From assembly GCA_026396065.1 (NCBI GenBank), contig JAPLXO010000011.1:10748-74747 (forward strand): 64,000 nt of DNA. The letters run 5' to 3'. This DNA is from Candidatus Nomurabacteria bacterium. GTDB lineage: Bacteria; Patescibacteriota; Minisyncoccia; Phycocordibacterales; UBA9973. Positions within the stretch are counted from its first letter, which is position 1. Each line of letters opens with the position of its first letter. A program made the position numbers and the translations under genes. This document shows positions 4,770 to 24,509 of this stretch, piece after piece. The notes under the pieces are model-generated. The model worked only from the letters and a program-made list of their open reading frames with translations, was not told the DNA's origin and searched no databases.

Positions 4770-5378
4770 ATGAGTGAAGAAAATGAAGAGATAGTACAAC
4801 AAAATACTCAAATTCCAGCAAAATTTCCTGATGAAGTTACAGACGATAGTGAAGTCGTCGAATTTGAATTCAATGAAGACGGGGAAGAAGATTTAAAGAA
4901 AACATTAAAGAAACTCCGAGCGGATTTGAAGCAGGCGAAGGCCGAAAAGGAAGAATACCTCACTGGCTGGCAGAAAGAGCGAGCGGGTTTTGTGAATTAT
5001 AGAAAAGAAGAGGAGGATAGAAATACTAATTTTAAAAATATTATTCAAGAAAGAATGATGGATAAGTTTCTCTCTGTAATGGATAGCTTTGATATGGCTT
5101 TTGCAAATAAAACTGCTTGGGAGAAAGTAGATGCGAATTGGCGCACTGGTGTGGAATATATTTATAATCAAATGAACAGTGTGTTCGAAGAGTACGGCGT
5201 ACAAGCCATAGGCAAAGTCGGCGAAAAGTTTAATCCAGAACTTCATCAATCAGTGGAGCATGTAGTTACTGACGATCAATCAAAAGATGACACCATCGCC
5301 ATAGTTCTACAAAAAGGCTACAAATTAAAAGATAAAGTTCTCCGCCCAGCACGAGTGAATGTGTTTGGGTTTAAATAA
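4770..5378 (+). CDS. grpE: Nucleotide exchange factor GrpE
   Basis: 202 aa; acidic N-terminus, coiled coil, ..GFVNYRKEEED.. (cf. FENYRKR) and C-terminal GY.L.DKVLRPARV.VFG beta-domain. Confidence 0.88.
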   Translation: MSEENEEIVQQNTQIPAKFPDEVTDDSEVVEFEFNEDGEEDLKKTLKKLRADLKQAKAEKEEYLTGWQKERAGFVNYRKEEEDRNTNFKNIIQERMMDKFLSVMDSFDMAFANKTAWEKVDANWRTGVEYIYNQMNSVFEEYGVQAIGKVGEKFNPELHQSVEHVVTDDQSKDDTIAIVLQKGYKLKDKVLRPARVNVFGFK

Positions 5379-5439
5379 TTGCTTTTTTATTTAAAAATGT
5401 TATTATCTGTTTTAGATAAAGCAACATCGTGAAGTACGG

Positions 5440-5490
5440 TGCTTGCTGTTGCAAAACAGTGACGGTTCGATTCCGTCTCCTCGGTACATA
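5440..5490 (+). other. tRNA-like 3' fragment (T-arm GACGG-TTCGATT-CCGTC plus 7-nt acceptor-like 3' strand); no complete cloverleaf found
   Basis: GGTTCGATTCC T-loop consensus read directly. The complementary 5' acceptor strand (ccgagga) is absent upstream, so it is not a whole tRNA. Possible att-site remnant. Confidence 0.35.
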
Positions 5491-5665
5491 ATAAAAGTAT
5501 AGTTAATAGTATGGAGTCTAGGTGGGAGATTATGATGTGGCTTTCTGACAATAAGTTTGCTGAATCGTGTTTTGAGAAACCACCCTCTTTCAAGAAATTA
5601 TTGTGTATGCTTTATCGCTTTTCGTCACTGTTTAATTACAGTGACGATTTTTTATTTCTCAAAAC

Positions 5666-5780
5666 CCCCACCCCTGACCCCTCCCCATTTTTTATAAAAA
5701 TAGAGAGGGGAATTTGGATTTCTCCCTTCTCTAAAATCTTCAAATTTTAGAGAAGGGTTGGGGATGAGGATGGGTGAGGT
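5666..5780. repeat. Intergenic repeat element A: C4-5 tract block (G-quadruplex-capable on minus strand), hairpins, and GGGTTGGGGATGAGGATGGGTGAGGT box
   Basis: cccccacccctgacccctcccc at 5666-5687; gggttggggatgaggatgggtgaggt at 5755-5780; related boxes recur at 20326-20425 and 23776-23816. Confidence 0.6.
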
Positions 5781-5786
5781 TATTAA

Positions 5787-5840
5787 AATAAAAATTGTTA
5801 ACAAACTCAGCGATAGCAGAAAATGTTAACAATTTTTATT
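5787..5840. terminator. Perfect 17-bp inverted repeat (aataaaaattgttaaca / tgttaacaatttttatt) overlapping the stop of the minus-strand PaaX-like gene; likely bidirectional terminator
   Basis: Read directly; arms are exact reverse complements with a 20-nt loop. Confidence 0.55.
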
Positions 5841-6342
5841 TTCCGAATGTTTCAAATAAAACTTTTTTAGTTTCGTCATCCACAAATTGTGTGACGATAA
5901 TCATCATCTCTGTCGTGAGGCCGAGGTCTTTTTTAATATTTATAAATAAGTGTTCGAAAGGGTAGGGAGAAATCCATGCAGAATTTTTCAGACAGACGAA
6001 TCCAGCTTTTTTGAGGAGGTATCGCAAACTCTCGCGCTCGCTTTTGCGAGCTTCAGGAAGATCGAGTAAAATAATTCTCCAAAATCCATCCCAAGAAGAT
6101 GATACGAGAGTGGTATCGCTATCGAGCTTCAAACTGTGCATTTTCTTTTTTCCTTCTTTCGTCAGGCGAGCGTAGTCATTCTGCCCACTAGAAATATGCT
6201 CCACCAGCCCTGCTTCACGTAGATTTTTTAGTGAGCGGGTGAGTGCGTATTTTTCATTTATTGGGCCGTCTACGAGGGAATTGACCGCTACAGCGCTCTT
6301 TTCGCCTAGTATTTTAATGATTTTTTTAGTATGGCTTGACAT
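5836..6342 (-). CDS. PaaX-family-like transcriptional regulator (winged helix), short form
   Basis: 168 aa; SWDGFWRIILLDLPE.RK.ERE.LR..L...GF..L..SAWISPYP resembles the PaaX core (WDG.W....YD.PE...R..LR..L...GF..L...VW.SP). Shorter than canonical PaaX. Confidence 0.45.
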   Translation of the reverse strand: MSSHTKKIIKILGEKSAVAVNSLVDGPINEKYALTRSLKNLREAGLVEHISSGQNDYARLTKEGKKKMHSLKLDSDTTLVSSSWDGFWRIILLDLPEARKSERESLRYLLKKAGFVCLKNSAWISPYPFEHLFINIKKDLGLTTEMMIIVTQFVDDETKKVLFETFGK

Positions 6343-6741: not shown

Positions 6742-8637
6742 ATGTCAAAAATAATAGGAATAGATTTGGGTACTACAAATAGTGCGGTTGCGATTATCGA
6801 AGGAGGACAACCAAAAATAATAGAAAATATCGAAGGAGCGAGAACAACTCCGAGTATTGTTTCTGTTGCAAAAAACGGAGATCGTCTCGTCGGCCTTCTT
6901 GCGAAGCGTCAGGCGGTGACGAATCCAGAAAATACCGTCTACGGTATCAAGCGTTTTATGGGTCACAATTTTGAAGATCCAGAAGTGCAAAAGGACTTGA
7001 AGAATGCTTCATTTAAATTGCAAAAAGGAAAAGACGGCGGAGTAGAAGTAATGATTGGCGACAAATGGATGCGCCCAGAAGAAATCTCTGCGATGATTTT
7101 AACTAAAATAAAAACAGACGTCGAAGCAAAGATCGGAGAAAAAATCACTGAAGCTGTTATTACAGTTCCAGCATATTTCAACGATGCACAAAGAAAAGCT
7201 ACAAAGGATGCAGGTATGATCGCAGGACTCGATGTAAAAAGAATCATCAACGAGCCGACAGCGGCAGCCCTCGCTTATGGTTTCAATAAAAAGAAAAATG
7301 AAAAGATCGTCGTGTATGACTTTGGAGGAGGAACTTTCGATGTATCAGTTCTCGAAATCGGTGACGATGTTATCGAAGTAAAATCAACAGATGGCGACAG
7401 TCACCTCGGAGGTCGTGATATAGATCACAAGATTATTGCTTGGATCGCAGAAGAATATAAAAAGACTTCTGGCGTAGATGTTCGTAACGACAAATTGGCC
7501 TTGCAACGCCTCGATGAAGCTGCTGAAAAGGCTAAAATCGAGCTTTCTACTGCTATTGAAAGTGAAATCAACATTCCTTTCATCACTTCTACTGCAGAAG
7601 GTCCACAGCACTTATTGCTCAAAATGACTCGTGCACAACTCGAATCAATTGCCGATGAATATATCACTCGTTCTATCGAAATCACAAAAAGAGCAATGAC
7701 TGCTTCTGGTTTCAAAATGGAAGACATGAATGAAATCATAATGGTCGGAGGACAAACAAGAATGCCAAAGATTGTCGAAGAAGTGAAAAAAGTTTTTGGA
7801 AAAATGCCAAACCTCTCTATCAATCCAGATGAAGTCGTCGCCCTCGGTGCTGCAGTGCAAGCCGGAGTATTGCAAGGTGATGTGCGTGATGTTTTACTCC
7901 TCGATGTTATTCCACTTTCACTAGGTATCGAGACACTCGGAGGTGTGGCTACAAAATTAGTCGAGAGAAATACTACTATTCCATCTAGTAAATCACAGAC
8001 ATTTTCTACGGCAGCTGACAATCAAACAAGTGTAGAAATTCACATCGTGCAGGGTGAGAGACCAATGGCTTCAGATAATAAAAGTTTAGGACGATTTATT
8101 TTGGACGGAATTCCACCAGCACCGCGTGGTATGCCACAAGTCGAAGTTTCTTTTGATGTTGATGCAAACGGAATTCTAAATGTCACTGCAAAAGATAAAG
8201 CTTCAGGTAAAACTCAAACAATTAAAATCGAAGCAAGTTCAGGATTGAAAGATGAAGACATAAAGAAGATGCAAGCTGATGCAGAAATGCATGCTGAAGA
8301 AGATGCAAAGAAAAAAGAATTGGCAGAAATTAAAAATTCTTGTGAAATGACTATTTACTCTGCAGAAAAAGCTTTGAAGGACAATGAAGCGAAAATTCCT
8401 GCAGATGTAAAAGATGGTGTGAATGCAAAAATTACAGCACTTCGCGGGTTGAAAGACGGTACAGATATGGAAGCTATCAAAAAAGCCCTCGAAGAACTTT
8501 CAGCCGAAATGTCCAAGATCGGTGAAGCTATGAGTAAAGCCGGCGAGCAAGCTCCAGCCGGAGGTGCACCCGAAGAACAAGCTACCGAAGTCAAGGGCGA
8601 AGAAGTAAAGCCAGAAGGTGAAGAGCCTAAAGCATAA
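6742..8637 (+). CDS. dnaK: Molecular chaperone DnaK (Hsp70)
   Basis: 631 aa; [12 protein letters not shown]; DLGGGTFD; substrate-binding domain; acidic C-terminal tail. Confidence 0.97.
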
Positions 8638-8644
8638 AAACTAA

Positions 8645-8676
8645 CAAAAAAAAGCTCAAAAGAGCTTTTTTTTGTT
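8645..8676 (+). terminator. Rho-independent terminator after dnaK
   Basis: aaagctc-aaa-agagcttt plus T8. Confidence 0.7.
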
Positions 8677-8701
8677 TTTAGTAACTGATATAATAAAACC
8701 T

Positions 8702-10978
8702 ATGGAAGATATTGTAATACCTGAAAATAAAGACATGACCTATCTTGGTCAGACTACTTTTCGTAACAAAAATGTTTTATTTGGAATAAAACGCAAAGAT
8801 CGTCGTCAGCACTGTTATTTGCTCGGAAAATCAGGTACTGGTAAATCTGCTCTCATGACAAATATGGTTTTGCAAAACATCATTAATGGTGATGGTGTTT
8901 GTGTTGTCGATCCACACGGAGAACTTGTAGAAAGTATTGTATCAGCTATTCCAGCTCATCGTTTAAAAGATGTTATTTATTTTAATCCTGCTGACACTGA
9001 TTATCATATTGGTTTTAACGTTTTAGAGTTATTAGATCCTCGTTACAAACATCTTGTCGCCTCAGGATTGATGGGAATTTTCACAAAAATTTGGGCGAAT
9101 GCATGGAGTGCTAGAATGGAATACATTTTAAATAATTGTATTTTGGCTTTACTCGATACACCAGGTACTACACTTCTTGGAATTCCTAGAATGCTCGTCG
9201 ACAAAGATTATCGTCAGAAAATAATTACAAATTTGAAAGATCCAGTCATTAAAGCTTTTTGGATTCATGAATATGAAGCTTGGCAAGATAAATTTCGAAA
9301 TGAAGCTATTGCTCCGATTCAAAATAAAGTCGGACAATTTCTTTCTACTTCCATTATTCGTAATGTCGTAGGGCAATCAAAAAGTACAATTGATCTTTTT
9401 CAAGTAATGAATGAAGGAAAGATTTTTTTGGTGAATGTTTCCAAGGGACGTATCGGTGAAGATAACTCTGCACTTCTCGGAGGTATGCTTATTACAAAAA
9501 TTCAGCTCGCTGCAATGGAGCGTGTGCGTATTCCAGAAGAAGAACGTAAAGACTTTTACCTGTATGTCGACGAATTCCAAAATTTCGTAACAGATGCTTT
9601 TGCTAGTATTCTTTCAGAAGCTCGTAAATATCGTTTAAATCTTACTATAGCTCACCAGTACACAGCTCAGCTTGTCACTGCCAATGGTTCCGCTGTGCGT
9701 GATGCTGTATTCGGCAACGTAGGGACTATGATTATTTTCCGTGTAGGTGCTGACGATGCTGAATTCTTAGAAAAAGAATTTGAACCAGAATTCATGGCTA
9801 CAGATATTGTGAACTTGCCAAACTATCGAATTTATTTAAAATTGATGATTGATGGTATTACGAGTAGACCTTTTTCTGCTAAGACACTTGCACCGATGAA
9901 TAAAAACAGTAAGGTAAATACTGAGGAAGAAGTGATAAAGTCTTCAAGAACTCTGTATGGAAGATCGAAAGAAGTCGTTGAATCAGAAATAAATTCTTGG
10001 AGTGGAATGTCTTTGGGAGACATAGTACCTCCAGGTGGCAATGCTGGTGCAGATGTAGAAAAATTCCCTGTAATTTGTTCAAATTGTATGAAAGAAACTA
10101 CCGTGCCATTCAAGCCAGAAGAAGGACGCGCTGTATATTGTAAAGAGTGTATTGCTAAAATGAAGACAGGCGAGTTGAAGCCTACAAAAGGATCAGCACG
10201 TCAAATAAAATACGATGAAGAAACATTTTTCAAACCTCTTGCCGATCTAGGTATTGAATTTACTTCAAAAGAAGCTCCACCAAAAGTAATACCAAAGCCA
10301 TACATGCCACCAGTATCAAAACCAGGAATTTTTGGGACTGTTAAAAAAGTCTTTCAAAATACTGTTGGAGCAAAACCTCCATCTCCAATTTCAAATATAC
10401 CAAAACCAATTTCTCCAATTACTACTACTAATGTTAATGTTCCAGTTCCACCAAAACCTCCTATAAATATTTTTAAACCACCAACTCCTTCTCTTAATAT
10501 TCCAACACCGGTAATACCAACACCTACTCCACCAGTTAAACCTATTATTTCTACTACTCCAATTGAGTCACAAAAACCTCAAACTGTAGTTGAAAAACCA
10601 AAAGAAAATACAGCACTTAAAGATTTGTTAAATAAAGCCTTGGCACCAAAGCCAATTACACCAGTAGTACCACCTATACAGCCAGTTGTTCCAGAAATAA
10701 AAAAAGTTGAACCAGAACCAATTTCTTTAGCTTCTTTAAAAAATCCAACAATTGCAACTCCTATTTCACAAAATAAAGATAGATCTGCGAGTGCTGAAAA
10801 TATGAATAAGTTAAAAGAATTTGTAGCAAAAATTGCAGAACCTCTTAAAGCAGAAGAAATAAAAAAAGAGGAACAAATTCCTACACAACCTCCAGTCACA
10901 CCTGCACCTACTCCGACGATACAAAAAACAACAAAAGAAGTTCCAGAAGATGTATTAAGGAAAATTTTAGAAGAATAA
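8702..10978 (+). CDS. VirD4/TraG/TraD-like (FtsK-HerA superfamily) P-loop ATPase with C-terminal CxxC-CxxC zinc ribbon and ~250-aa Pro/Thr-rich low-complexity tail
   Basis: Walker A LLGKSGTGKS; Walker B FYLYVDEFQNF; EARKYRLNLTIAHQYTAQL resembles the TraG-D_C/VirD4 motif (...RGYGI.L.LI.Q...QL). Zinc ribbon CSNC...x...YCKEC. No N-terminal TM helices. The ORF track starts at a TTG (8672) inside the dnaK terminator, so the first ATG (8702) is preferred. Paralog of 20448-21920. Confidence 0.6.
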   Translation: MEDIVIPENKDMTYLGQTTFRNKNVLFGIKRKDRRQHCYLLGKSGTGKSALMTNMVLQNIINGDGVCVVDPHGELVESIVSAIPAHRLKDVIYFNPADTDYHIGFNVLELLDPRYKHLVASGLMGIFTKIWANAWSARMEYILNNCILALLDTPGTTLLGIPRMLVDKDYRQKIITNLKDPVIKAFWIHEYEAWQDKFRNEAIAPIQNKVGQFLSTSIIRNVVGQSKSTIDLFQVMNEGKIFLVNVSKGRIGEDNSALLGGMLITKIQLAAMERVRIPEEERKDFYLYVDEFQNFVTDAFASILSEARKYRLNLTIAHQYTAQLVTANGSAVRDAVFGNVGTMIIFRVGADDAEFLEKEFEPEFMATDIVNLPNYRIYLKLMIDGITSRPFSAKTLAPMNKNSKVNTEEEVIKSSRTLYGRSKEVVESEINSWSGMSLGDIVPPGGNAGADVEKFPVICSNCMKETTVPFKPEEGRAVYCKECIAKMKTGELKPTKGSARQIKYDEETFFKPLADLGIEFTSKEAPPKVIPKPYMPPVSKPGIFGTVKKVFQNTVGAKPPSPISNIPKPISPITTTNVNVPVPPKPPINIFKPPTPSLNIPTPVIPTPTPPVKPIISTTPIESQKPQTVVEKPKENTALKDLLNKALAPKPITPVVPPIQPVVPEIKKVEPEPISLASLKNPTIATPISQNKDRSASAENMNKLKEFVAKIAEPLKAEEIKKEEQIPTQPPVTPAPTPTIQKTTKEVPEDVLRKILEE

Positions 10979-11021: not shown

Positions 11022-11336
11022 TTGCAAAATCACATGTTTTGGAATAAAAATACAAATATACATACAGAAAGTACAGAAGAATTTTTTGACGACGAAAGTT
11101 TTAAAGAAATAAAGATGACCTTTATTGGTCGCGTGGTTACTATTATTATTGCTTCACTTTCATTGATCGCCGCACTTGCTTGGGAGGAAACACTTCACGA
11201 TTTATTCAGAGAATTTTTCACTAGTAGTGAATCAATACAAGGTAAACTACTTTATGCAATATTGGTGACTCTGCTTACTGTCATTGTTTCTGTTTTCGTC
11301 GGCCGAAGATTCCTTAAAAAAGCACGAAGGAAATAA
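11022..11336 (+). CDS. Small hypothetical membrane protein (two predicted TM helices)
   Basis: 104-aa ORF; hydrophobic stretches IGRVVTIIIASLSLIAALA and LLYAILVTLLTVIVSVFVG; between ATPase and paralog array. Confidence 0.4.
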   Translation: MQNHMFWNKNTNIHTESTEEFFDDESFKEIKMTFIGRVVTIIIASLSLIAALAWEETLHDLFREFFTSSESIQGKLLYAILVTLLTVIVSVFVGRRFLKKARRK

Positions 11337-11380: not shown

Positions 11381-13135
11381 ATGAATCCAGAAATTAAAAA
11401 TTGTCAGAACTGTAAAAAAGAATTTACGATAGAAACGGAAGATTTTTCTTTTTATAAAAAAATGAAAGTTCCACCACCGACATTTTGTCCAGAGTGTAGA
11501 ATGCAAAGAAGATTGGCTTGGAGAAATGAGCGTGGACTATATCGTAGAAATAGTGATGTTCCAGGGAAAGAAAACGAACAGATAATTTCTACTTATCCAC
11601 CTACTATAAATGTAAAAGTATACGACAATGATTATTGGTGGAGTGATAATTGGGAACCTACTGATTATGCTATGGAGTATGATTTTTCACGACCTTTTTT
11701 TGAACAATTTCGGGAACTTTTGTCTAAAGTGCCATTAATAAGTTTTGCTGATAGTAAAGGAGTAAATAATCAATATTGTAATTATATTACTGAAGGTAAG
11801 AATTGTTATATGCTTTCTGCTGCATGGAGTTGTGAAGATTGTTTACTTGGAAATAGAAATTCTTTTTGCAAGGAAACTGTTGATTCTTATGTGTGTCATA
11901 AAACGGAATTTTCTTATGGAAATATTTATTGTGGAGAATCATATAAATTATTTTATAGTGAACATTCGTACAATTGTACTGATTCATATTTTCTTTACGA
12001 CTGCCGAAACTGTATTGATTGTTTTATGTGTTATGGTTTGAGAAATAAATCTTACTGTATTGAAAATGTTCAATACACACAAGAAGAATATAGAGAAAAA
12101 ATGAAAGATATAAATTTGGGTAATTATGAAACTGTTGAAAATAATAAAACTTATTTTAATAAATTTAAACAAAATGCAGTTCGTAAGTACGCCAATAATA
12201 CAAAATGTATAAATGTGACGGGAGATAATGTCGAAAATGCAAAAGATGCACAATATTGTTTTGATTTACCAGGAGGAATTGAAAATATTAAATACTGTAA
12301 TTGGGGTACGTATGGATTAAAAGATTCTTATGATACAGGGCCGGGGACAGGTGGTAAATCAGAAATGACCTATGAAGGAGTTAGTATTGGTGTAGCAAAT
12401 GCTAATTGTTCTTTTGGTGCAATTGTTTGGAATTCTAGTAATGTACAATATGCTTTTAATTGTTACTCTACGAATAATTGTTTTGGTGTCGTCAGTTTGA
12501 AAAGTAAATCTTACTGTATTTTAAATAAGCAGTATACCAAAGAAGAATATAATGAATTGCTACCGAAAGTCATTCAACATATGAATGATATGCCTTATGT
12601 AGATAAAAAAGGACGTGTGTATAAATATGGGGAGCTTTTTCCAATAGAACTTTCTCCTTATGCATACAATGGTGCAACGGTACAAGATTTTTTCCCTCTA
12701 GATAAAGCCACTGCAGTAGGAGAGGGTTTTAATTGGCAAGATGAAACGGAGAGGAATTATGAGGTTACTTTACCAGCCTCAAGTATTCCTTTAAATATTG
12801 AAGAAGTTAAAAATGATATACTGTCGCAAACTTTAGGTTGCATAAACGCTTCAGGAGATGTACAGGGTTGCACGAAGGCATTTAGGTTAGTTTCAAAAGA
12901 ATTAGATTTTTATAAAAGATTTAATATTCCTATTCCACATTTTTGTCCAAATTGTAGACACGCGGAGCGTGTCAGTAGACGCAACCCTATGAAACTTTGG
13001 CACAGACAATGCATGTGTGATAAAACAAATCATGGTCATGCAGCTAAGTGTGAAGTTGAATTTGAGACTGCATATGCTCCAGATAGACCAGAGATCGTCT
13101 ATTGTGAAAAGTGTTACCAACAGGAGATTTATTAG
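11381..13135 (+). CDS. Cysteine-rich zinc-ribbon protein, paralog 1 of unrecognised family (584 aa)
   Basis: N-terminal CQNC...FY.K.KVPPPTFCPECR zinc ribbon; two internal copies of C..C.DCF.C..LRN..YCI.N.QY..EEY; C-terminal FY.R.N.P.P.FCP.CRH.ER...NP.KLW.RQC.C...RPEIVYCEKCYQQEIY. Confidence 0.7.
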   Translation: MNPEIKNCQNCKKEFTIETEDFSFYKKMKVPPPTFCPECRMQRRLAWRNERGLYRRNSDVPGKENEQIISTYPPTINVKVYDNDYWWSDNWEPTDYAMEYDFSRPFFEQFRELLSKVPLISFADSKGVNNQYCNYITEGKNCYMLSAAWSCEDCLLGNRNSFCKETVDSYVCHKTEFSYGNIYCGESYKLFYSEHSYNCTDSYFLYDCRNCIDCFMCYGLRNKSYCIENVQYTQEEYREKMKDINLGNYETVENNKTYFNKFKQNAVRKYANNTKCINVTGDNVENAKDAQYCFDLPGGIENIKYCNWGTYGLKDSYDTGPGTGGKSEMTYEGVSIGVANANCSFGAIVWNSSNVQYAFNCYSTNNCFGVVSLKSKSYCILNKQYTKEEYNELLPKVIQHMNDMPYVDKKGRVYKYGELFPIELSPYAYNGATVQDFFPLDKATAVGEGFNWQDETERNYEVTLPASSIPLNIEEVKNDILSQTLGCINASGDVQGCTKAFRLVSKELDFYKRFNIPIPHFCPNCRHAERVSRRNPMKLWHRQCMCDKTNHGHAAKCEVEFETAYAPDRPEIVYCEKCYQQEIY

Positions 13136-13137
13136 TT

Positions 13138-14886
13138 ATGGAATCAAAAACACCAAAATCAGACGTACTTATAGATGAAATCCTTGCAGGGCTTGTTCCA
13201 CATACACGTATATGTAAATGGAAAGGCGAGCATCAGCATTGTGAAGGCAAATTTGAAATTACGAATGAAGATATTTCGTTTCTTAAAATGCTTCGAGTTC
13301 CTGCTCCAAATTTCTGTCCTACTTGTAGAAGAATTAAAAGACAATCTTTTATGGGTTTCGCGCAACTTTTTAAGAGGAAATGTGATGTAGTTGGACACGA
13401 TGAATCTATCATCTCTGTTTTTTCTAAAGAATGCCCTTTCCCAGTTGTTGATTATAAGTATTTTGCTTCTGATGAATTTGATTCTTTTTTATATCGTAAA
13501 AATTATGAAGAGAATACAAGTCCAATGGAACAACTTTTTTCTCTAAGGAAAATTTTTCCAATGCCTTCATTTTTAAATCGTGATTCTTCGAGTATAAATA
13601 GTGATTATTCAAATGGAGGTAGAGATAATAAAAACTGTTATTACACTAGTGGTTGCTATACGGTAGAAAATGCTTGGTATTCAAATATGCTCGTGAAGAG
13701 CAAAGAAATAATGGATTGCCGAACTGTAAAACATTCAGATCATGTATATTCGAGTCTTTATTCAGACCATCTATATAAATCTTATTTTACTTATTTTTCC
13801 AATAGCTGTACAGATAGTATGTTTCTTTTTGATTGTAGAAATTGTATAAACTGTTTTGGTTGTGTAAATTTGCGTAATGCTAAATATTGTATTTGGAATG
13901 AACAATATAGTAAAGAAGATTATGAACAATTTATAAAATCAAATCTACCATTCTCTAGAGATTTTTTAGAAGAAAATAAGCAAAAATTTTGGCAACTTGT
14001 AAAATCACTTCCAATAAATGCTTCTAGAAATATGACTGTAAAAAACAATGTAAATGGTGTGATGAATGTGAATTCGAATAATTTATATGATGTCACAGAA
14101 TCTAGTAAAGCAGAAAATGTACGTCATGCAGATGGCGCTCTTACACATCAAAATTCTATGGATTTACTATACTCGGGCGGATCTAGTTTGCTTTACGGTA
14201 CTATAAATATCGGTTCTCAATCGAGCAACGTTCGATTTTCAGTTTCATGTAAATTTTCTACTAACTCAGAATTTATTTTTAATTCAAATAATCTAGATAA
14301 TTGTTTTATGTGTTTTGGTTTGCAGCATAAATCTTATTGTATTTTAAACAAACAATATAGCCCAGATGAATATTTTAAAATAATAGATGAAATAAAATCT
14401 GACATGATAAAAAGGGGAGAATACGACGACGGACTAAGTTTTGAATTTTCTGCCCAAGCATATAATTTTTCATTAGCCCAGATTTCTTTTCCTCTTACAG
14501 AACAAGAAATAATAAAATTAGGTGGTTATATGGCTGAAGAGCCAGAAAGTAATGCCGGAGATATGAAAATTTTATCAAAAGAAGAAGTGCCACAAACAAT
14601 AGATGAAGTATCAGATGACATTGTAGATTATGCAATTAAATGTGAGGTTACTGCTAGGCCTTTCAGGATTACTCCTTCAGAATTACAATTTTATAGAATA
14701 ATGAAATTACCACTTCCTACTATACATCCGATAGTCAGAATGAGAAAATATTATGAACTGGCACCAATCGGTAAAAGCTACCCTGCTGTTTGTTCTAAAT
14801 GTGGTAAATCATTTCGATCATTATTTGATCCTAAAGACGGTTATAAGCTATACTGTGAAGATTGTTATAAACAAGAAGTATATTAA
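13138..14886 (+). CDS. Cysteine-rich zinc-ribbon protein, paralog 2 (583 aa)
   Basis: Same architecture; starts 2 nt after the paralog 1 stop; ends ...YCEDCYKQEVY. Confidence 0.7.
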   Translation: MESKTPKSDVLIDEILAGLVPHTRICKWKGEHQHCEGKFEITNEDISFLKMLRVPAPNFCPTCRRIKRQSFMGFAQLFKRKCDVVGHDESIISVFSKECPFPVVDYKYFASDEFDSFLYRKNYEENTSPMEQLFSLRKIFPMPSFLNRDSSSINSDYSNGGRDNKNCYYTSGCYTVENAWYSNMLVKSKEIMDCRTVKHSDHVYSSLYSDHLYKSYFTYFSNSCTDSMFLFDCRNCINCFGCVNLRNAKYCIWNEQYSKEDYEQFIKSNLPFSRDFLEENKQKFWQLVKSLPINASRNMTVKNNVNGVMNVNSNNLYDVTESSKAENVRHADGALTHQNSMDLLYSGGSSLLYGTINIGSQSSNVRFSVSCKFSTNSEFIFNSNNLDNCFMCFGLQHKSYCILNKQYSPDEYFKIIDEIKSDMIKRGEYDDGLSFEFSAQAYNFSLAQISFPLTEQEIIKLGGYMAEEPESNAGDMKILSKEEVPQTIDEVSDDIVDYAIKCEVTARPFRITPSELQFYRIMKLPLPTIHPIVRMRKYYELAPIGKSYPAVCSKCGKSFRSLFDPKDGYKLYCEDCYKQEVY

Positions 14887-14888
14887 TT

Positions 14889-14951
14889 ATGGAAACAAAA
14901 AACTGTCAAAATTGTCCCGATTTTTTAAAAATCGAGGATCCACGATTCTAA
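14889..14951 (+). pseudogene. Truncated ancestral N-terminal leader of paralog 3 (METKNCQNCPDFLKIEDPRF*), interrupted by a ~100-nt palindromic insert
   Basis: 20-codon ORF begins like the other paralogs (METKNCQNC). It then runs into the inserted element and a stop. ATGA overlap with the restart codon at 14951. Confidence 0.5.
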
Positions 14952-16684
14952 TGAATTATAATCGGGATAAAAAAGATATGGAACATCAATCAGAAAGTAA
15001 AATATGTCAGAATTGTAAGACTTCGTTTATTATAAAAGAAGAAGATTTTAATTTTTATGAAAAAATCAAAGTTCCTCCACCGACATTTTGCCCGGAGTGT
15101 AGAAACATACAACGTTTTGCTACTAGAAATTCAAAATCTTTATATAAACGTGCTTGTGATGGCTGTAAAAAAGAAGTTATATCACGATTTTCACCGCATA
15201 ATCCAGCAGTTATGTATTGCCGAGATTGTTGGTGGAGTGATAATTGGGACGCACTTTCTTTTGCAAAAGATTACGATTTTTCTAAAACTTTTTTTGAACA
15301 ATTTAAAGAACTTCTTTTCTCTGTACCACATGTATCACTTTTAAATAATAATATGCATGAAAGTGATTACTCAAACATGGAATCAGATGATAAAAGATGC
15401 TATCTAACCTTTGGAGGACATTATAATGAAGATTGTGCTTTTACTGAATATAGTCTTTGGGGACGTGAAGTATATGATTCTTATTGGTCATTAAAATCGG
15501 AACAATGTCATGGATGTTCTCTTGTTGAGCGTTGCTATCGCACTTATGGATCTGAACAATGTTATGACTGTCTCGATACACTTTTTTCTTTTGATTGTAC
15601 AAATTGTTCAAATATTATTGGTTGTATAGGGTTGAGAAATAAATCATATTGTATTTTTAATCAACAGTATTCTAAAGAAGAATTTTTTGAAATTAAAGAA
15701 AATTTAAATATTGGTTCATATAGAGCTCGAAAAGAACTAGAAGAGAAATCAAAAACATTTTGGCTTAGTTTCCCACATAAAGAGAGTTTGATAACTCATT
15801 CAAATGATTGTACTGGAAATAGTATAGTTAATTCAAAAAACTCAAAAAACATTTGGCAGGCAGATAGTGTTGAGGATTCCAAATATAGTTATATCGCAGC
15901 TTGGAATAAAAACTGTTATGACGAAACATCGGCTGGTAATGACGAGCTTTGTTATCTGTGCGCAAATGGTGGTGGTTTATATAATTCTATCGCTATATTA
16001 TATTCTTTTGGTTCAAATGTAGATAAGAAAAAACAAAGTTTTAATTGTGGTTATTCTTATACTGTTCTCAACTGCACTGATTGTTTTGGTTGTGTAGGAA
16101 TTCGTAATAAACAATATTGTATTTTGAACAAACAATATACCAAAGAAGAGTATTTTGAACTTTTAGAAAAAATTAAAAAAAGTATGTTGGAAAATCCTTT
16201 CCAATCACAAAAGACAGGACAAGTATTTAGCTATGGGGATTTCTTTCCATCAGAGCATTCACTTTTTGCTTACAATGAGACAGTAGCACAAGATTTATAT
16301 CCAAAAGATAAAGATTCTGCAGAGGCTCAAGGTTTTGTTTGGCGAGAAGAACCTGAACCACACTACGACTTTAATCATTATCAAATTCCTGATGATATAA
16401 AAGACGTAGATGATTCTATTTTGTCTCAAGTGTTAAAATGTGAAGAAAGTGGTAAGGGTTATAAAATAGCTCGATCTGAGTTAGCATTTTATCAAAAAAT
16501 GCAGATTCCAATACCTCGTATTTCGCCACTTATACGTATTCGAGACCGTGTACGTGCATTGTTACCATTTAAACTTTTTGATAGGCAATGTCAGAAATGT
16601 AATAAGGATATAAAAACTCCTTATTCTCCAGAACGCCCAGAAATTATCTACTGTGAAAAGTGTTACCAGCAGGAAGTATATTAA
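14951..16684 (+). CDS. Cysteine-rich zinc-ribbon protein, paralog 3 (577 aa from restart Met)
   Basis: MNYNRDKKDMEHQSESKICQNCKTSFII...; same family architecture; ends RPEIIYCEKCYQQEVY. Confidence 0.65.
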   Translation: MNYNRDKKDMEHQSESKICQNCKTSFIIKEEDFNFYEKIKVPPPTFCPECRNIQRFATRNSKSLYKRACDGCKKEVISRFSPHNPAVMYCRDCWWSDNWDALSFAKDYDFSKTFFEQFKELLFSVPHVSLLNNNMHESDYSNMESDDKRCYLTFGGHYNEDCAFTEYSLWGREVYDSYWSLKSEQCHGCSLVERCYRTYGSEQCYDCLDTLFSFDCTNCSNIIGCIGLRNKSYCIFNQQYSKEEFFEIKENLNIGSYRARKELEEKSKTFWLSFPHKESLITHSNDCTGNSIVNSKNSKNIWQADSVEDSKYSYIAAWNKNCYDETSAGNDELCYLCANGGGLYNSIAILYSFGSNVDKKKQSFNCGYSYTVLNCTDCFGCVGIRNKQYCILNKQYTKEEYFELLEKIKKSMLENPFQSQKTGQVFSYGDFFPSEHSLFAYNETVAQDLYPKDKDSAEAQGFVWREEPEPHYDFNHYQIPDDIKDVDDSILSQVLKCEESGKGYKIARSELAFYQKMQIPIPRISPLIRIRDRVRALLPFKLFDRQCQKCNKDIKTPYSPERPEIIYCEKCYQQEVY

Positions 16685-16686
16685 TT

Positions 16687-18459
16687 ATGGAAACACGAAA
16701 TTGTCAAAATTGTAAAAAAGATTTCACTATAGAGGTGGAGGATTTTAATTTTTATCAAAAGATAAAAGTTCCACCACCGACGTGGTGCCCAGAGTGTCGA
16801 CTTATTCGTCGTCTTGCTTATCGTGAAGAACGGTCTTTTTATAAAGATGAATGTGATAAATGCGGTCATGAAATAGTAAGTTTATTTGCACCAGAATCTG
16901 ATCTTCCTGTCTTTTGTTCTCCTTGTTGGTGGAGTGATAGTTGGGATGCTACATCTTATGGAAAAGACTACGATTTTTCTCGTCCATTTTTTGAGCAATT
17001 ATATCAATTAATGAAAGTCGTACCAAATCAGGCTACAAATACACGAAATTGTACTGATTGTAAATATTCTCATGGCAATATACGTTGTAAAAATTGTACT
17101 TTTGTTTTTGCTGGTATACAGTCTATTAATTGCTATTATTGTTCAACACCGATTTTCACAAAAGATTCTTTTGATTCAAGCTTTATTATAAATGCTGATC
17201 ATGTATATGAAGGTGTACATATAGGGGGAATATATAATTCAAAATTTATTTATTTTTCTGATGAATGCTTGGACTGTTCTTTTATTTTTAATTGTGTTGG
17301 ATGTTCAGATTGTTTTGGTTGTGTAAATTTAAGAAATCAAAAATATTGTATTTTTAATATTCAATATTCTAAAGAAGAATATAAAAAAGAAATTTTAAAA
17401 TGGGATCTAGGTAGTTATGAAAATTTACAAAAAGCACGAGAACTTTTTATGAAACTTTACCATAAAACACCAAGACGTTTTGCATTAATTTCAAATTCTA
17501 CAAATTGTATTGGTGATGATATTCAAAATACTAAAAATTGTAAAATATGTTTTTCTGCTACTCATGGAGTAGAAAATTCTAAATTTATTTTTCAATGTGG
17601 ATTATTGTTGAAAGATAGTTATGATGTGACACTAGGCGGAGATACTTCTGAGCTTGCATATGAAGTAAATGGTAGCACTCAATCACAAAAAAGTTTTTTT
17701 TGTAGGGGTAGTAATAACTTAAGAGATGTTGAATATTCAGATAATATATACAATGGATCCAATCTTTTTGGTTGCGTAAAATTGAGACATAAAAAATATT
17801 GTATTTTAAATAAACAATATACAAAAGAAGAATATGAAGATTTAATACCAAAAATAAAACAGCATATGATAGATATGCCATATGTTGATAAAAAAGGACG
17901 AGTCTATAAATATGGGGAATTTTTTCCAGTAGAAATAGCTTTATTTGCTTACAATGAAACCTGGGCACATCAATATTTTCCTATTACAAAAGAAAAAGCA
18001 ATAGAACAAGGTTACAATTGGCGTGATCCGATAGAAAGGGATTATAAAATAACTATTAACATTGGGAATTTGCATAATCATATTAAAGATGTGACTGATT
18101 CTATTTTAGATGAAGTGATAGAATGTGAACATAATGGAAAAAACTGTAATCAACAGTGCACTACTGCTTTTAGAATTTTACCAAATGAATTGGGTTTTTA
18201 TAGACAAATGAATTTGGCTTTGCCTAGAATATGCCCAAACTGTCGTCATTATGAAAGATTAAAAAAAACAAATCCACCAAAATTATGGCATGGAAAATGT
18301 ATGTGCGATGGTGTAGAATCAAGTAATAAAGAATATAGAAATACTATTAAGCATTTGCATGGAGAGGAGCCTTGCCAAAATGAATTTGAAACTTCTATAA
18401 GTAGTGAAAGAAAAGAAATAGTTTATTGTGAAAAATGTTATCAGGATGAATTTATATGA
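16687..18459 (+). CDS. Cysteine-rich zinc-ribbon protein, paralog 4 (590 aa)
   Basis: METRNCQNCKKDFTIEVEDFNFYQKIKVPPPTWCPECR...; ends KEIVYCEKCYQDEFI; first ATG is 16687 (the ORF-track start 16660 is an alternative codon). Confidence 0.7.
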   Translation: METRNCQNCKKDFTIEVEDFNFYQKIKVPPPTWCPECRLIRRLAYREERSFYKDECDKCGHEIVSLFAPESDLPVFCSPCWWSDSWDATSYGKDYDFSRPFFEQLYQLMKVVPNQATNTRNCTDCKYSHGNIRCKNCTFVFAGIQSINCYYCSTPIFTKDSFDSSFIINADHVYEGVHIGGIYNSKFIYFSDECLDCSFIFNCVGCSDCFGCVNLRNQKYCIFNIQYSKEEYKKEILKWDLGSYENLQKARELFMKLYHKTPRRFALISNSTNCIGDDIQNTKNCKICFSATHGVENSKFIFQCGLLLKDSYDVTLGGDTSELAYEVNGSTQSQKSFFCRGSNNLRDVEYSDNIYNGSNLFGCVKLRHKKYCILNKQYTKEEYEDLIPKIKQHMIDMPYVDKKGRVYKYGEFFPVEIALFAYNETWAHQYFPITKEKAIEQGYNWRDPIERDYKITINIGNLHNHIKDVTDSILDEVIECEHNGKNCNQQCTTAFRILPNELGFYRQMNLALPRICPNCRHYERLKKTNPPKLWHGKCMCDGVESSNKEYRNTIKHLHGEEPCQNEFETSISSERKEIVYCEKCYQDEFI

Positions 18460-18572
18460 ATAAAAAAACAAAATTAAAAATAGAATCTTTAAAATATTTA
18501 ATTCCAATCTTGTTAAAAACAATTAAATTTCGAATTAAAGTTTGGCGACGTAAAAACTTTTAAATAAGATAT

Positions 18573-20315
18573 ATGGAAACACGAAACTGTCAAAATTGTA
18601 AAAAAGATTTCACTATAGAGGTGGAGGATTTTAATTTTTATCAAAAGATAAAAGTTCCAGCGCCGACTTTTTGCCCAGATTGTAGAACAATACGTAGACT
18701 ATGTTGGAGAAATGAAATGTCTCTTTTTAAGAGAAAATGTGATGCTCCTGGACATGAAGAAATGCTCATTACATGTTTTCCTCCAGAAGAAAAACTCACT
18801 GTATATGATTCTACATCTTGGTGGGGTGATTCTTGGGATGCAATACAATATGGAAAAGAATATGATTTTTCCAAATCATTCTTTGAACAGTGGAGAGATT
18901 TAAGAAATAGTATTCCACTTCAGGCACTTTCAAACATAAAAGCGACTAACAGTGATTATTGTAATGTGGCAGAGGGCAGTAAAGATAGCTATATGTGTTC
19001 GGGTACTTGGAAAATAGAAAGAACTCTTTACTCTAATAGAGTTTCAGAAACAAAAGATTCCTCCGACTTGTATATAGTGTATCGTTCTGAGCTTTGTTAT
19101 GAAGATGTAATATGTTCTGATTGTTACCATTTAATGTACTCTTTAGATTGTAAAAGTTGTGTTGACTCATTTTTTCTCTATGATTGTGTGGGTTGCACAG
19201 ACTGTTTTGGTTGTAGTAATTTACGCAATAAATCATATTGCATGTGGAACGAGCAATTGTCTAGAGAAGAATATTTTCGTCATTTAGCAGAATATAATTT
19301 AAAAAATCATGAGACTATATCGATTTTAAAAAATAAATTTAAAGAAATTTGTTTGCAATCTTTACATCGTTTTTCACTTCAAATAAAATCAGTAAATTCT
19401 ACTGGTGACAATTTAGAAGGTACAAAAAATTGCAAAGTGTGTTTTGATGTTTCTGGAAAAATGGAAGATTTGAAATATGTGCATTGGACAGCTATTAGTG
19501 CAAAAGACGCTTATGATTCTGGCCCTGGTATTGGACAAGTTGAACTTGCATATGAATCCTTTGACACTGGAATAGGTAATTTCCGTAGTCTTTTTACGAG
19601 TGTTGTATATAGTTGTAACGATGTTGAATATTCATTTAATTGTCATGGTTCTTCGAATTTATTTGGTTGTATTGGAATTAGAAATAAAAAATACTGTATT
19701 TTAAATAAAGAATATACAAAAGGGGAATATGAAATATTATTGCCAAAAATTAAAGAGCAAATGATGCAAGTTCCATATATAGATAAAAAAGGAATTAATT
19801 ATAGATACGGTGAATTTTTTCCAGCAGAACTTTCTACTTTTTGTTATAACGAAACACAAGCACAAGATTATTTTCCAATAGATAAGGAATATGCATCTAA
19901 AATGGGATATCGTTGGCGTGATAAAAAGATAAGTGAATATCACATCACTATTGAATCAAAAGATCTTCCAGATTCTCTTGATGACGTTACAGATTCAATC
20001 ACTAATGAAATTATTGGATGTGAAAATAAAGATAAGATGAGTAATTATTGTAGAGGAGCATATAAAATAACTATCGATGAGCTGAATTTATATCGCAAGC
20101 TTGGAGTACCATTACCAAGACTTTGTTTTCTTTGTCGGCATGAAACTAGATTAAAAATGCGTAATCCAATGAAGCTTTGGAATAGACAGTGTATGTGTGA
20201 AAAAGAAAATCATCAACATAGTGGTAAATGTGAAATTACATTTGAAACATCATACGATCCTAATAGACCAGAAATAGTATATTGTGAAAAATGCTATCAA
20301 GCCGAGGTTTATTAG
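18573..20315 (+). CDS. Cysteine-rich zinc-ribbon protein, paralog 5 (580 aa)
   Basis: METRNCQNCKKDFTIEVEDFNFYQKIKVPAPTFCPDCR...; C-terminus NPMKLWNRQCMCEKENHQHSGKCEITFETSYDPNRPEIVYCEKCYQAEVY nearly identical to paralog 1. Confidence 0.7.
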   Translation: METRNCQNCKKDFTIEVEDFNFYQKIKVPAPTFCPDCRTIRRLCWRNEMSLFKRKCDAPGHEEMLITCFPPEEKLTVYDSTSWWGDSWDAIQYGKEYDFSKSFFEQWRDLRNSIPLQALSNIKATNSDYCNVAEGSKDSYMCSGTWKIERTLYSNRVSETKDSSDLYIVYRSELCYEDVICSDCYHLMYSLDCKSCVDSFFLYDCVGCTDCFGCSNLRNKSYCMWNEQLSREEYFRHLAEYNLKNHETISILKNKFKEICLQSLHRFSLQIKSVNSTGDNLEGTKNCKVCFDVSGKMEDLKYVHWTAISAKDAYDSGPGIGQVELAYESFDTGIGNFRSLFTSVVYSCNDVEYSFNCHGSSNLFGCIGIRNKKYCILNKEYTKGEYEILLPKIKEQMMQVPYIDKKGINYRYGEFFPAELSTFCYNETQAQDYFPIDKEYASKMGYRWRDKKISEYHITIESKDLPDSLDDVTDSITNEIIGCENKDKMSNYCRGAYKITIDELNLYRKLGVPLPRLCFLCRHETRLKMRNPMKLWNRQCMCEKENHQHSGKCEITFETSYDPNRPEIVYCEKCYQAEVY

Positions 20316-20325
20316 AATGAAGTCC

Positions 20326-20425
20326 ATGATAAGGGGTTTGGGTTGTATTTCTCCCTCTCCTTGATAAGGAGAGGCCGTCTACAGGTGTCCATCAACTACC
20401 GGTGGACTTTGGGTGAGGTGAATTA
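20326..20425. repeat. Intergenic repeat element B: hairpin ctccctctcctt-gata-aggagagg plus gggtgaggtgaat box
   Basis: Read directly; the same hairpin and box recur at 23776-23816; related G-box at 5755-5780. Confidence 0.65.
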
Positions 20426-20447
20426 TATGCTAAAATAATAATACATT

Positions 20448-21920: not shown

Positions 21921-21967
21921 ATTAAACAACATACTGACAAACTCCAGTATGTAAGGATGTTAAATTT

Positions 21968-22012
21968 ATGAATTCTGAAACAAAAAATTGCCAAAATTGT
22001 CCCGATTTTTAA
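21968..22012 (+). pseudogene. Truncated ancestral N-terminal leader of paralog 6 (MNSETKNCQNCPDF*), interrupted by the same insert as paralog 3
   Basis: Read directly; the same CQNC then cccgattttt... junction as at 14910. Confidence 0.5.
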
Positions 22013-22035
22013 AAAATCGAGGATCCACGATTCTA

Positions 22036-23775: not shown

Positions 23776-23816
23776 CTCCCTCTCCTTAATAAGGAGAGGG
23801 TTGGGGTGAGGTGAAT
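23776..23816. repeat. Intergenic repeat element C: hairpin ctccctctcctt-aata-aggagagg plus gggttggggtgaggtgaat
   Basis: Immediately follows the paralog 6 stop codon; copy of element B. Confidence 0.65.
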
Positions 23817-23855
23817 TTTTGATTTTTAGATGATTTTTTGCTAATATAACACTCT

Positions 23856-24509
23856 ATGAGTAAAGATTACTATGAAGTTTTGGGAGTTAATAAAAGTGCT
23901 ACAAAAGACGAATTGAAAACGGCTTTTCGTAAGCTTGCGCACAAACATCATCCAGACAAGAATAAAGGGGATGATAAAAAATTTAAAGAAATAAATGAAG
24001 CGTATCAAACACTTTCAGATGACACAAAGCGTGCACAATACGATAGATTTGGTGCAGGTTATCAAAATATGGGTGGCGGACATCAACATGGTGGATTTTC
24101 TGGTGGAGGTTTTGAAGGATTTGACTTTTCTGGTTTTCAGCAAGGTGGACAAGAATTTGATTTTGGAAACTTGAATGATATATTTTCAGATTTTTTTACA
24201 GGAGGCAGAGGTGGTTTTCACACCAGAACTCCTCGTGGCCGAGACATGCAAACAGAAATTGAAATTTCTTTTATAGATGCTATTTTAGGTGTTGAAAAAA
24301 ATATTGTTATTACTGGGCATAAAGAAATAAAAATAAGTATTCCGTCTGGTATACGTGATGGCCAAACTTTAAAAATGACAGGAATGGGTGAAGTTATAAA
24401 AGATGGAAAAGCAGGAGATTTATATATAAATGTTCATGTTAAAGTTCCACACAAGATATCTAAAAAAGCTCGCGAACTTCTTGAAGAATTAAAAAAAGAG
24501 GGAATTTAG
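23856..24509 (+). CDS. dnaJ: DnaJ-like co-chaperone, minimal form (J-domain plus G/F region plus partial C-terminal domain; no CxxCxGxG zinc-finger domain)
   Basis: DYYEVLGV...HPDKN J-domain with HPD; Gly/Phe-rich linker; [13 protein letters not shown]-terminal segment; only 217 aa and no Cys repeats. Confidence 0.8.

Follow-up and report, generated by a model that had tools for sequence, protein, structure and literature searches.

The question raised by this locus is what the hairpins with an accompanying G-rich box are that lie between genes at three places of the window (the whole 64-kb stretch of Candidatus Nomurabacteria DNA analysed here), and whether they mark the boundaries of gene modules, act on transcripts or are inserts of another kind.

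The elements and their gene surroundings

Four elements in which a G-box mirrors one arm of a hairpin were located at three sites of the window (Table 1). Copy C is canonical, copy B carries a hairpin in its second loop, and region A holds a head-to-head pair, A(+) and A(-). The box strings are GGGTTGGGGATGAGGATGGGTGAGGT at 5755-5780, GGGTGAGGTGAAT at 20411-20423 and GGGTTGGGGTGAGGTGAAT at 23798-23816, and the hairpin CTCCCTCTCCTT-(G/A)ATA-AGGAGAGG precedes the box at 20351-20374 (copy B) and 23776-23799 (copy C), as a preliminary description of this DNA had reported. All strings quoted there were found in place, except that the G tract GGGGAGGGGTCAGGGGTGGGGG, with its four G-runs, is the minus strand of 5665-5686 and thus lies one base to the left of 5666-5687. 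The tract is the sole cluster of G or C runs of at least four in the window, in keeping with the earlier remark that such runs are unusual at about 32% GC (window GC 0.322).

Table 1. Genes near the elements, and the parts of the four elements, in the window.
Feature	Position	Strand	Remarks
grpE	4770-5378		
Composite region A	5665-5780		two elements head-to-head
Copy A(-)	5665-5710	-	inverted; 9 triads
Copy A(-) pyrimidine arm, CCCCTCTCT	5710-5702	-	
Copy A(-) A/T extension and loop	5701-5687	-	3-nt loop inside 15-nt A/T stretch
Copy A(-) purine arm, GGGGAGGGG	5686-5678	-	
Copy A(-) second loop, TCA	5677-5675	-	
Copy A(-) third arm, GGGGTGGGG(G)	5674-5665	-	
Copy A(+)	5724-5768	+	8 triads
Copy A(+) hairpin, CCCTTCTCTAAAAT / ATTTTAGAGAAGGG	5724-5737 / 5744-5757	+	6-nt loop CTTCAA
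Copy A(+) pyrimidine arm, CCCTTCTC...		+	
Copy A(+) purine arm, GAGAAGGG	5750-5757	+	
Copy A(+) second loop, TTG	5758-5760	+	
Copy A(+) third arm, GGGATGAG	5761-5768	+	altered in step with hairpin
Extra G-box, GATGGGTGAGGT	5769-5780	+	second third-arm-like copy, canonical type (GGGTGAGGT, 5772-5780)
PaaX-like gene	5836-6342	-	
dnaK	6742-8637		
VirD4/TraG-like coupling-protein homologue (T4CP-like)	8672-10978		
DUF5654	11022-11336		
Five overlapping Cys-rich paralogs	11381-20315		
Copy B	20354-20419	+	8 triads; same hairpin as C, 9 bp
Copy B pyrimidine arm, CCTCTCCTT	20354-20362	+	followed by loop GAT
Copy B purine arm, AAGGAGAGG	20366-20374	+	
Copy B second loop	20375-20411	+	37 nt, with own small hairpin
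Copy B third arm, GGTGAGGT	20412-20419	+	
Copy B tail, GAAT	20420-20423	+	
Second T4CP-like gene	20448-21920		
Paralog 6	21988-23775		
Copy C	23778-23812	+	canonical element; 9 triads (6 G*G:C, 2 T*A:T, 1 A*A:T)
Copy C pyrimidine arm, CCCTCTCCTT	23778-23787	+	
Copy C first loop, AAT	23788-23790	+	
Copy C purine arm, AAGGAGAGGG	23791-23800	+	
Copy C second loop, TTG	23801-23803	+	
Copy C third arm, GGGTGAGGT	23804-23812	+	
Copy C tail, GAAT	23813-23816	+	conserved in lineage
dnaJ	23856-24509		
7th paralog	55934-57691		without element

Region A occupies the convergent gap that separates an intrinsic terminator (5622-5647, plus strand) from the 3' end of the PaaX-like gene. The earlier placement of this copy, together with a tRNA-like fragment, between grpE and dnaK was confirmed; ARAGORN found no tRNA in the window, and the fragment corresponds to a 3' part only. 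The two later sites had both been described as following directly upon a stop codon. That holds for copy C, where the stop codon of paralog 6 occupies 23773-23775, the hairpin runs from 23776 and the element starts about one base past the stop, but not for copy B, the hairpin of which starts 35 nt past the stop of paralog 5 (20313-20315). Directly 3' of copy B comes the extended -10 sequence TG-C-TAAAAT (20428-20436) of the T4CP-like gene. The remaining genes of the window have housekeeping functions (aminoacyl-tRNA synthetases, DnaB, RecR, PBP2, FtsW, MraY), and no transposase, RAYT or integrase was encoded among the proteins scanned in the 64-kb window.

The DNA hairpin of copy C folds at -10.4 kcal/mol (z -5.2) and leaves the third arm unpaired. 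In copy B, the hairpin within the second loop reaches -11.6 kcal/mol against a mean of -5.1 kcal/mol, and 1 of 200 shuffles was as good; the whole copy recurs without a single difference in an independent public assembly (L127, Logan SRR20698644) and is therefore no assembly artefact. In region A, a left C-box and the right G-box are complementary and enclose both hairpins, giving one long imperfect palindrome whose minus-strand RNA fold has -61.2 kcal/mol (z -5.4), with z values of -3.4 and -4.3 for the DNA folds. The extra G-box at its right end does not match the adjacent hairpin and pairs with the left C-box in the whole-region folds. Membership in an Rfam family was considered and rejected: the window searched at gathering thresholds, 5380-5840 searched permissively and the second palindromic family all gave nothing but sub-threshold microRNA-like hairpin matches.

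The third arm is coupled to the hairpin

In each copy the G-box repeats the purine arm of the hairpin in mirror order, such that a G faces each G and an A or T faces each A. A scan of the window for this motif (purine arm at least 50% G, at least 8 perfect triads, first loop up to 30 nt, second loop up to 45 nt) yielded exactly three loci and nothing further, and there were no matches in 300 dinucleotide-preserving shuffles. With the scan relaxed to 7 triads and one mismatch, the same three loci were found only, compared with a shuffle mean of 0.07; copy A(-), which has two G.T mismatches in its hairpin, is found when one hairpin mismatch is allowed. The 9-mer GGGTGAGGT alone is within chance in the window (4 matches, 3.2 expected). 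The 24-nt hairpin is beyond chance, with two forward-strand copies against none expected (the program counts three matches, one of them a reverse-strand self-match). The preliminary description had missed the rule that unifies the copies, namely that the G-box is a mirror of the purine arm.

Copies B and C follow homologous gene ends and have the hairpin and a 13-nt tail in common, and recent gene conversion between the paralogs is visible, the stretches 14892-15104 and 21977-22189 being 93% identical. This could be taken to mean that there is no family at all, that B and C are a duplicated 3' flank of the paralogs and that A resembles them by chance. We consider this extremely improbable, given that copy A obeys the mirror rule with other arm sequences and on both strands, that the shuffles gave nothing comparable at the strict setting and the low mean cited above at the relaxed one, that the 7th paralog has no element and that the same element stands beside unrelated genes in many phyla.

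Within the window the third arm tracks the hairpin: GGAGAGGG is accompanied by GGGTGAGG, GAGAAGGG by GGGATGAG and GGGGAGGGG by GGGGTGGGG. Related metagenome loci provide the further arm pairs AGGAGGGG with GGGGTGGT, AGGGGGAG with GAGGGGGT, AAGGAGGGG with GGGGTGGTA, and GGAGAGGGG with GGGGTGAGG or GGGGAGAGG. In a non-circular version of the test, hairpins were first located blind to any third arm; a mirror arm within 45 nt was then present in 19 of 34 strand-readings of G-rich homopurine hairpins, where permuted arms predict 1.75. Among the matches listed from other genomes are 112 unique elements from many phyla, and in 66% of them the G-run extension is the same in third arm and purine arm, where permutation gives 28% on average and at most 42%; the Spearman coefficient of G-run extension between third arm and purine arm is 0.73 (0.86 for the two Watson-Crick arms). 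Hence the elements are non-random, and their third arm is coupled to the hairpin.

Class membership and the quadruplex question

A mirror arrangement of this kind is known from E. coli. The element was first listed there as BoxC by Bachellier et al. in the 1990s (PMC4666352), with a length of 56 bp and about 32 copies (PMC4666352, PMC2267715). It was re-described by Hoyne and Maher (2000, 2002) as 'potential intrastrand triplex' (PIT) and later named TM-ECO (PMC4666352). TM-ECO is a class II purine-motif triplex that forms in vitro as judged by CD and NMR (Holder et al. 2015, PMC4666352), while in vivo DMS footprinting in E. coli did not detect a stable triplex (PMC4666352). The E. coli motif is always intergenic, has no strand bias and occurs at times in inverted pairs; PIT elements block DNA polymerase in vitro and have neither promoter nor terminator activity, and comparison of E. 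coli strains shows motif-bearing loci to be more rearranged than controls (PMC4666352).

It is the mirror relation between G-box and purine arm that identifies the elements of the window with BoxC / PIT / triplex motifs. Judged from sequence, they are probably class II purine-motif intrastrand triplex motifs of the BoxC / PIT type. Most likely they are dispensable structure-prone intergenic inserts without a sequence-specific regulatory task. All four elements have the block order pyrimidine arm, purine arm and third arm on one strand. Watson-Crick pairing of the first two arms is perfect in C, B and A(+); A(-) is borderline, with two G.T pairs over 9 positions and one over the best 8, where the ITxF criterion admits at most 1 mismatch. 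The mirror third arm provides at least 8 triads throughout (9 in C, 8 in B, 8 in A(+), 9 in A(-)). The loop limits of the literature are 1-6 nt for ITxF and 0-10 nt for Hoyne and Maher, and only copy C, with loops of 3-5 and 3 nt, is within them. In A(+) and A(-), 17-18 nt lie between the triad-forming parts, the actual hairpin loop having 3-6 nt, and the second loop of B is longer still; on loop length we class A(+), A(-) and B as relaxed variants.

The strict TM-ECO / BoxC consensus, CCCTCNCCC N3-6 GGGNGAGGG N3 GGGNGAGGG, has no match in the window. Copy C agrees with the E. coli consensus at 8 of 9 positions per arm, and the three differences together are one triad, changed from C:G*G to T:A*T. 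The likeness extends to the sequence of parts on one strand (C-rich arm, loop, G-rich arm, short loop, mirror G-rich arm), to nearly equal arms (CCCTCTCC / GGAGAGGG / GGGTGAGG), to the second loop TTG, which resembles TTA of E. coli type A, and to the intergenic position, the possibility of inverted pairs and a presence that varies among relatives. The window elements differ from those of E. coli in several respects. At the ninth triad they have T:A*T where E. coli has C:G*G, and the set of four G3 runs is lost. The host has 32% GC and is of the Patescibacteria type, whereas that of BoxC/PIT/TM-ECO is a proteobacterium. The hairpins of copy A are extended by A/T pairs, unlike E. coli BoxC, and the second loop of copy B, 37 nt with its own hairpin, is beyond the limits published for E. 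coli-type motifs. Finally, the pair of region A is head-to-head with the third arms outward, whereas in the E. coli pairs listed in PMC4666352 the third arms point towards one another.

The same E. coli sequence has been read as a 'G-quadruplex-hairpin-duplex switch', HPG1/HPG2 (Kaplan et al. 2016, PMC5100583), and CD evidence is reported for quadruplex and hairpin forms of it (PMC5100583). There the same sequence family is read as a quadruplex former, and a quadruplex/hairpin switch would suit the tract at 5665-5686, the minus strand of which has four runs of at least four G and conforms to the pattern (G3+ N1-7)x4. By quadruplex-aware folding it is predicted to form a four-layer quadruplex of -40.8 kcal/mol (with RNA parameters as a proxy) that beats the hairpin in context. 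Copy A(-) being an inverted element, this tract is its purine arm plus third arm. The quadruplex-capable tract of the preliminary description is real, and a quadruplex prediction, which had been proposed as a check, supports it at this one place, but it is not general to the copies: the runs of at least 3 G number only two in each of A(+), B and C, which do not conform to the pattern and give no predicted quadruplex even when the G-rich part is taken in isolation. According to these predictions, three of the four window copies could not form a three-layer quadruplex. Compared with E. coli, the changes of GGG to AGG and of GGG to GGT destroy two of the four G3 runs and keep all triads, so that with the T:A*T variant the triplex and quadruplex readings can be told apart; among the matches listed this variant is the widespread form outside Proteobacteria. 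That the elements are a quadruplex/hairpin switch is thus highly improbable.

The earlier notion of a small REP-like family of intergenic palindromic repeats was borne out, and the family also exists outside the window. Like REP / BIME (PU) sequences, the elements are short imperfect palindromes, intergenic, multi-copy, often in inverted pairs and strain-variable. They differ from REP / BIME with RAYT in having no GTAG-type tetranucleotide or RAYT (none of the former was visible by eye in the window copies and no Y1 transposase was found among the window proteins scanned), and REPs have no mirror third arm. The C-box and G-box ends of region A, and of double-sided copies elsewhere, are complementary, as the terminal inverted repeats of a MITE would be; no target-site duplication is recognisable in the AT-rich flanks, and single-sided copies have no left repeat. 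An integron attC site was rejected, the RYYYAAC/GTTRRRY pair being absent.

Turnover, spread and possible effects of the elements

Relatives of the locus were compared in 80 metagenome loci encoding a close homologue of the second T4CP-like gene (791 kb in all). They contain 13 strict elements at 9 loci, every one class II. Among 43 unique junctions between paralog and T4CP-like gene, 20 are bare, measuring 22-48 nt and holding little beyond the extended -10 promoter TGnTAAAAT 8-14 nt 5' of the ATG. The other 23 are expanded by an insert that sits between the stop codon and the promoter. At 5 of the 43 junctions (window, L159, L187, L199, L207) the insert is a triplex motif; at least 5 carry an unrelated palindromic element of 75-95 nt, and others assorted hairpins. 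L177, L178 and L180 have the motif upstream of the same T4CP-like gene in a divergent gap, and a Nomurabacteria bin (L060, L108) has a double-sided motif that directly adjoins the stop of a Cys-rich paralog homologue, starting with the next base. Composite or nested forms are region A and L207. The tail GGTGAAT, which ends several copies in this lineage, is beyond the triplex part and is not explained by a triplex. With 20 of 43 junctions bare and the rest holding triplex or unrelated inserts, the element is dispensable, and it turns over at an orthologous site.

The position of many copies invites a reading at the level of transcription. Copies B and C and those of L060, L108, L187, L199 and L207 start 0-35 nt past the stop of a Cys-rich paralog in sense orientation, each a stable G+C-rich hairpin just past a stop codon in the case of B and C; unrelated strong hairpins occupy the same gap in other relatives, for example L155, L192 and the L135 type, as expected from selection for any hairpin at this place, and T-rich sequence follows copy C. 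The hairpin would then be a factor-independent terminator or 3'-end stabiliser of the upstream paralog operon that insulates it from the downstream promoter, with the G-box as accessory or irrelevant. A terminator scan flags no copy, yet it flags 5622-5647 adjoining copy A. The stem has no adjoining U-tract, the T-runs in C beginning 17 nt past it, the 20 bare junctions have no hairpin at all, and in the divergent promoter gaps of L177, L178 and L180 there is nothing to terminate. Across phyla, the orientation relative to flanking genes (crude, ORF-based gene contexts) has no consistent bias and no sense-strand preference, with (+,+) 19 vs (-,-) 35, 31 vs 25, 17 vs 31 and 28 vs 28. Co-change of the third arm with the hairpin is left unexplained, RNA does not form triplexes of the purine motif, and PIT has no terminator activity in E. 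coli (PMC4666352). The suggestion of the preliminary description that the repeats act as terminators or mRNA stabilisers is thus unsupported by the terminator scan, the orientation statistics and the E. coli tests, and we regard it as unlikely, although it keeps some weight in this lineage: the five single-sided post-paralog copies, directly behind the stop, carry the G-box on the sense strand without exception, which speaks against the triplex-insert reading and which an RNA-level role would also fit.

Two further roles of the G-box in expression were rejected. GAGGTGA complements the usual 16S 3' end in the manner of a Shine-Dalgarno sequence, but the extended -10 promoter lies between G-box and start codon and most members elsewhere have no GA after GGTGAGGT. 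A function as -35 box has the right spacing in copy B only, and the promoters are of the extended -10 type.

Outside this lineage, one genome per species was scanned with the T-variant pattern CCTCTCCT N3-9 AGGAGAGG N0-30 GGTGAGGT. At least 120 genome stretches, belonging to many phyla, contain it. The matches listed include Patescibacteria (Nomura-, Gottesman-, Moran-, Portnoy-, Ames-, Uhr-, Zambryski- and Falkowbacteria, Paceibacterota, Saccharibacteria, Gracilibacteria, Peregrinibacteria), Cyanobacteria, Chloroflexota, Bacteroidota, Ignavibacteria, Armatimonadota and Cloacimonadota, as well as a few Proteobacteria and one Bathyarchaeia bin. Long second loops fold significantly into a small hairpin in 28 of 40 cases among the matches listed; the looped architecture of copy B hence recurs elsewhere and marks a recurrent subtype, not a disrupted copy. 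Also among the matches listed, the third arm is present on both strands in 20 of 135 hairpins and on one side in 115. Since single-sided elements are the norm, the G-box is not accounted for by pairing with a C-box upstream of it, and a three-way-junction RNA built by C-box and G-box pairing was rejected, as it applies only to region A and those 20 hairpins.

The same pattern was found in 105 viral contig stretches. This occurrence, together with a near-identical sequence across many phyla, would be expected of a mobilisable element with a dedicated protein, an ssDNA transposase or nuclease as in REP/RAYT, that takes the hairpin and mirror arm as recognition structure and GGTGAAT as the end. 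All copies within a multi-copy viral contig are on one strand, and the G-rich strand falls on the C-skewed strand in 71 of 90 viral loci (71 vs 19), a strong bias among loci that may not be independent of one another. The composite or nested forms, the variable presence at orthologous junctions and the right end GGTGAAT conserved in the lineage point the same way. Genome loci have no such skew bias (30 vs 31), however, neither target-site duplication nor terminal inverted repeat is evident at B and C, the window lacks any transposase, RAYT or integrase, and no dedicated protein is known for BoxC, described since the 1990s. Taken together, a mobilisable element of this type seems improbable. 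Improbable as well is a horizontally spreading ssDNA element, inserted strand-specifically and carried by phages across phyla including Patescibacteria, whose triplex-capable fold would be recognised by a protein or a replication-linked process and which would prefer the gap between stop codon and promoter; if this were true, BoxC-type repeats would gain a mechanism.

Under the favoured reading as BoxC / PIT-type inserts, the relevant form would be transiently single-stranded DNA, in which the third arm would fold back into the major groove of the hairpin with the G*G:C, T*A:T and A*A:T triads of the class II purine motif. The elements may be selfish or neutral inserts, for which the short stretch from a stop codon to an extended -10 promoter is probably the only tolerated site, and they would be gained and lost fast between relatives. 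Any effect would be exerted through DNA secondary structure, by replication pausing or local rearrangement, as suggested for the E. coli elements. As to the marking of module boundaries put forward previously, B and C do lie in the gaps that close two paralog arrays, but the marking is largely a by-product, since these are the sole sizeable array gaps and were created by the elements, the insert-free orthologous junctions being as short as given above. The placement at boundaries thus appears to reflect mostly where inserts survive in a compact genome.

BoxC / PIT / triplex motifs have been without an assigned function since their description in E. coli in the 1990s. Whole-triad substitutions, at least five arm sequences each with its mirror arm and the agreement of G-runs across phyla lend comparative support to a third arm that is kept matched. 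Such sites call for caution in annotation and should not be labelled terminators, tRNA-linked attachment sites or quadruplex regulators. Given the viral occurrence and the presence or absence of the element at one orthologous junction, its spread and instability can be tested by comparison, and a known repeat class is now extended to a tiny AT-rich genome of the Patescibacteria type, where G-rich sequence is costly.

Sequences flanking copy A and other genes of the window

The coordinates of the features described here are collected in the table. Copy A, a head-to-head pair of triplex motifs (pyrimidine arm, purine arm and mirror third arm) between grpE and dnaK, has a terminator of textbook form beside it, and no convincing gene was found upstream of this terminator in window 5491-5660. 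An ORF at 5511-5750 spans both the terminator and the left C-box of copy A. A short rightward transcript, specifying a small RNA or a small protein, may lie between grpE and the repeat. Further to the left, the tRNA-like 3' part carries the T arm GACGG-TTCGATT-CCGTC (5461-5477) and an anticodon-like stem of GCA type with a 6-nt loop and is devoid of a 5' acceptor strand. ARAGORN gave no match for this element, and its score with the Rfam tRNA-Sec model was just 18.9 bits. Most likely this is a pseudogene or a piece of a tRNA; the 64 kb contain no intact tRNA.

The Cys-rich paralogs contain many Cys repeats and end in C-E-K-C-Y-Q-x-E-V-Y. Paralog 5 (18573-20315), the sole one scanned, had no Pfam match. 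The paralog array adjoins two genes for VirD4/TraG-like ATPases, all lying between dnaK and dnaJ, and the pairing of paralog and ATPase gene is kept across many groundwater metagenome contigs. Within the array, 14892-15104 and 21977-22189 share 93% identity, a sign that paralogs 3 and 6 have recently undergone gene conversion. Elsewhere in the window, a toxin-complex/RHS-type protein is encoded that is large for this kind of genome.

Features in the window and in related loci (L-numbers)
Feature	Location	Description
Tract resembling a tRNA 3' part	window 5426-5490	T arm, 3' acceptor strand and anticodon-like stem
Intrinsic terminator	stem 5622-5647 plus T-run	textbook form; directly left of copy A
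Seven Cys-rich paralogs	window 11381-23775 and 55934-57691	about 580-640 aa each
Extended -10 promoters	window 20428-20436 and 23839-23847	before T4CP-like gene and dnaJ, respectively
2083-aa protein	window 28363-34614	SpvB, TcdB-middle/N, FG-GAP, RHS repeats
Second palindromic insert	L135 5900-5985; also L143, L151, L179, L186	unrelated to triplex motif; same gap, upstream of T4CP-like gene
Triplex motif inside coding sequence	L181 3659-3696 and L196 1134-1171	arms CTCCCCCT/AGGGGGAG/GAGGGGGT
Upstream hairpin GGGGCGAAGCCCCT	L009, L015, L022, L028, L030, L032, L033, L046, L067, L090, L095, L101, L113, L117	

Promoters and inserts upstream of the T4CP-like gene

The T4CP-like (coupling-protein) gene and dnaJ have extended -10 promoters 8-14 nt ahead of their start codons (TGnTAAAAT or TGnTAATAT, in the window and at 43 paralog-to-T4CP-like-gene junctions in L128-L207) and lack a Shine-Dalgarno sequence. 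Transcripts from these promoters would be nearly leaderless, and where the junction is shortest, a -35 region, if present, would have to lie within the gene before it.

The second palindromic insert (75-95 nt, TTCTCCTCTTGAGGAG...CCCCTCAAGAGGGGAA) begins 0-6 nt past the paralog stop codon and folds into a closing stem of ~16 bp with three inner hairpins; it contains two compensatory pairs and had no Rfam match. In L181 and L196, the triplex motif itself sits in the 3' part of an ORF that lies upstream of the T4CP-like gene and ends in ...KDPLASGTPPSQGEKVKEVPEDVLKKILE before the stop.

Triplex motifs in viral contigs and in Chloroflexota

The triplex-motif pattern was present in 105 viral contig stretches (IMG/VR; L208-L312), one of which (L212) holds five motifs in 7.3 kb, and every copy in multi-copy contigs is on the same strand. 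The G-rich strand was the locally C-skewed one in 71 of 90 viral loci (p about 3e-8, although loci may be non-independent); the same comparison gave 30 vs 31 for genome loci. In the loci of Chloroflexota/Dehalococcoidia and others listed in the table, the conserved small hairpin GGGGCGAAGCCCCT lies ~25 nt upstream of the triplex motif, which suggests that in that lineage the two belong to a composite repeat of greater size.
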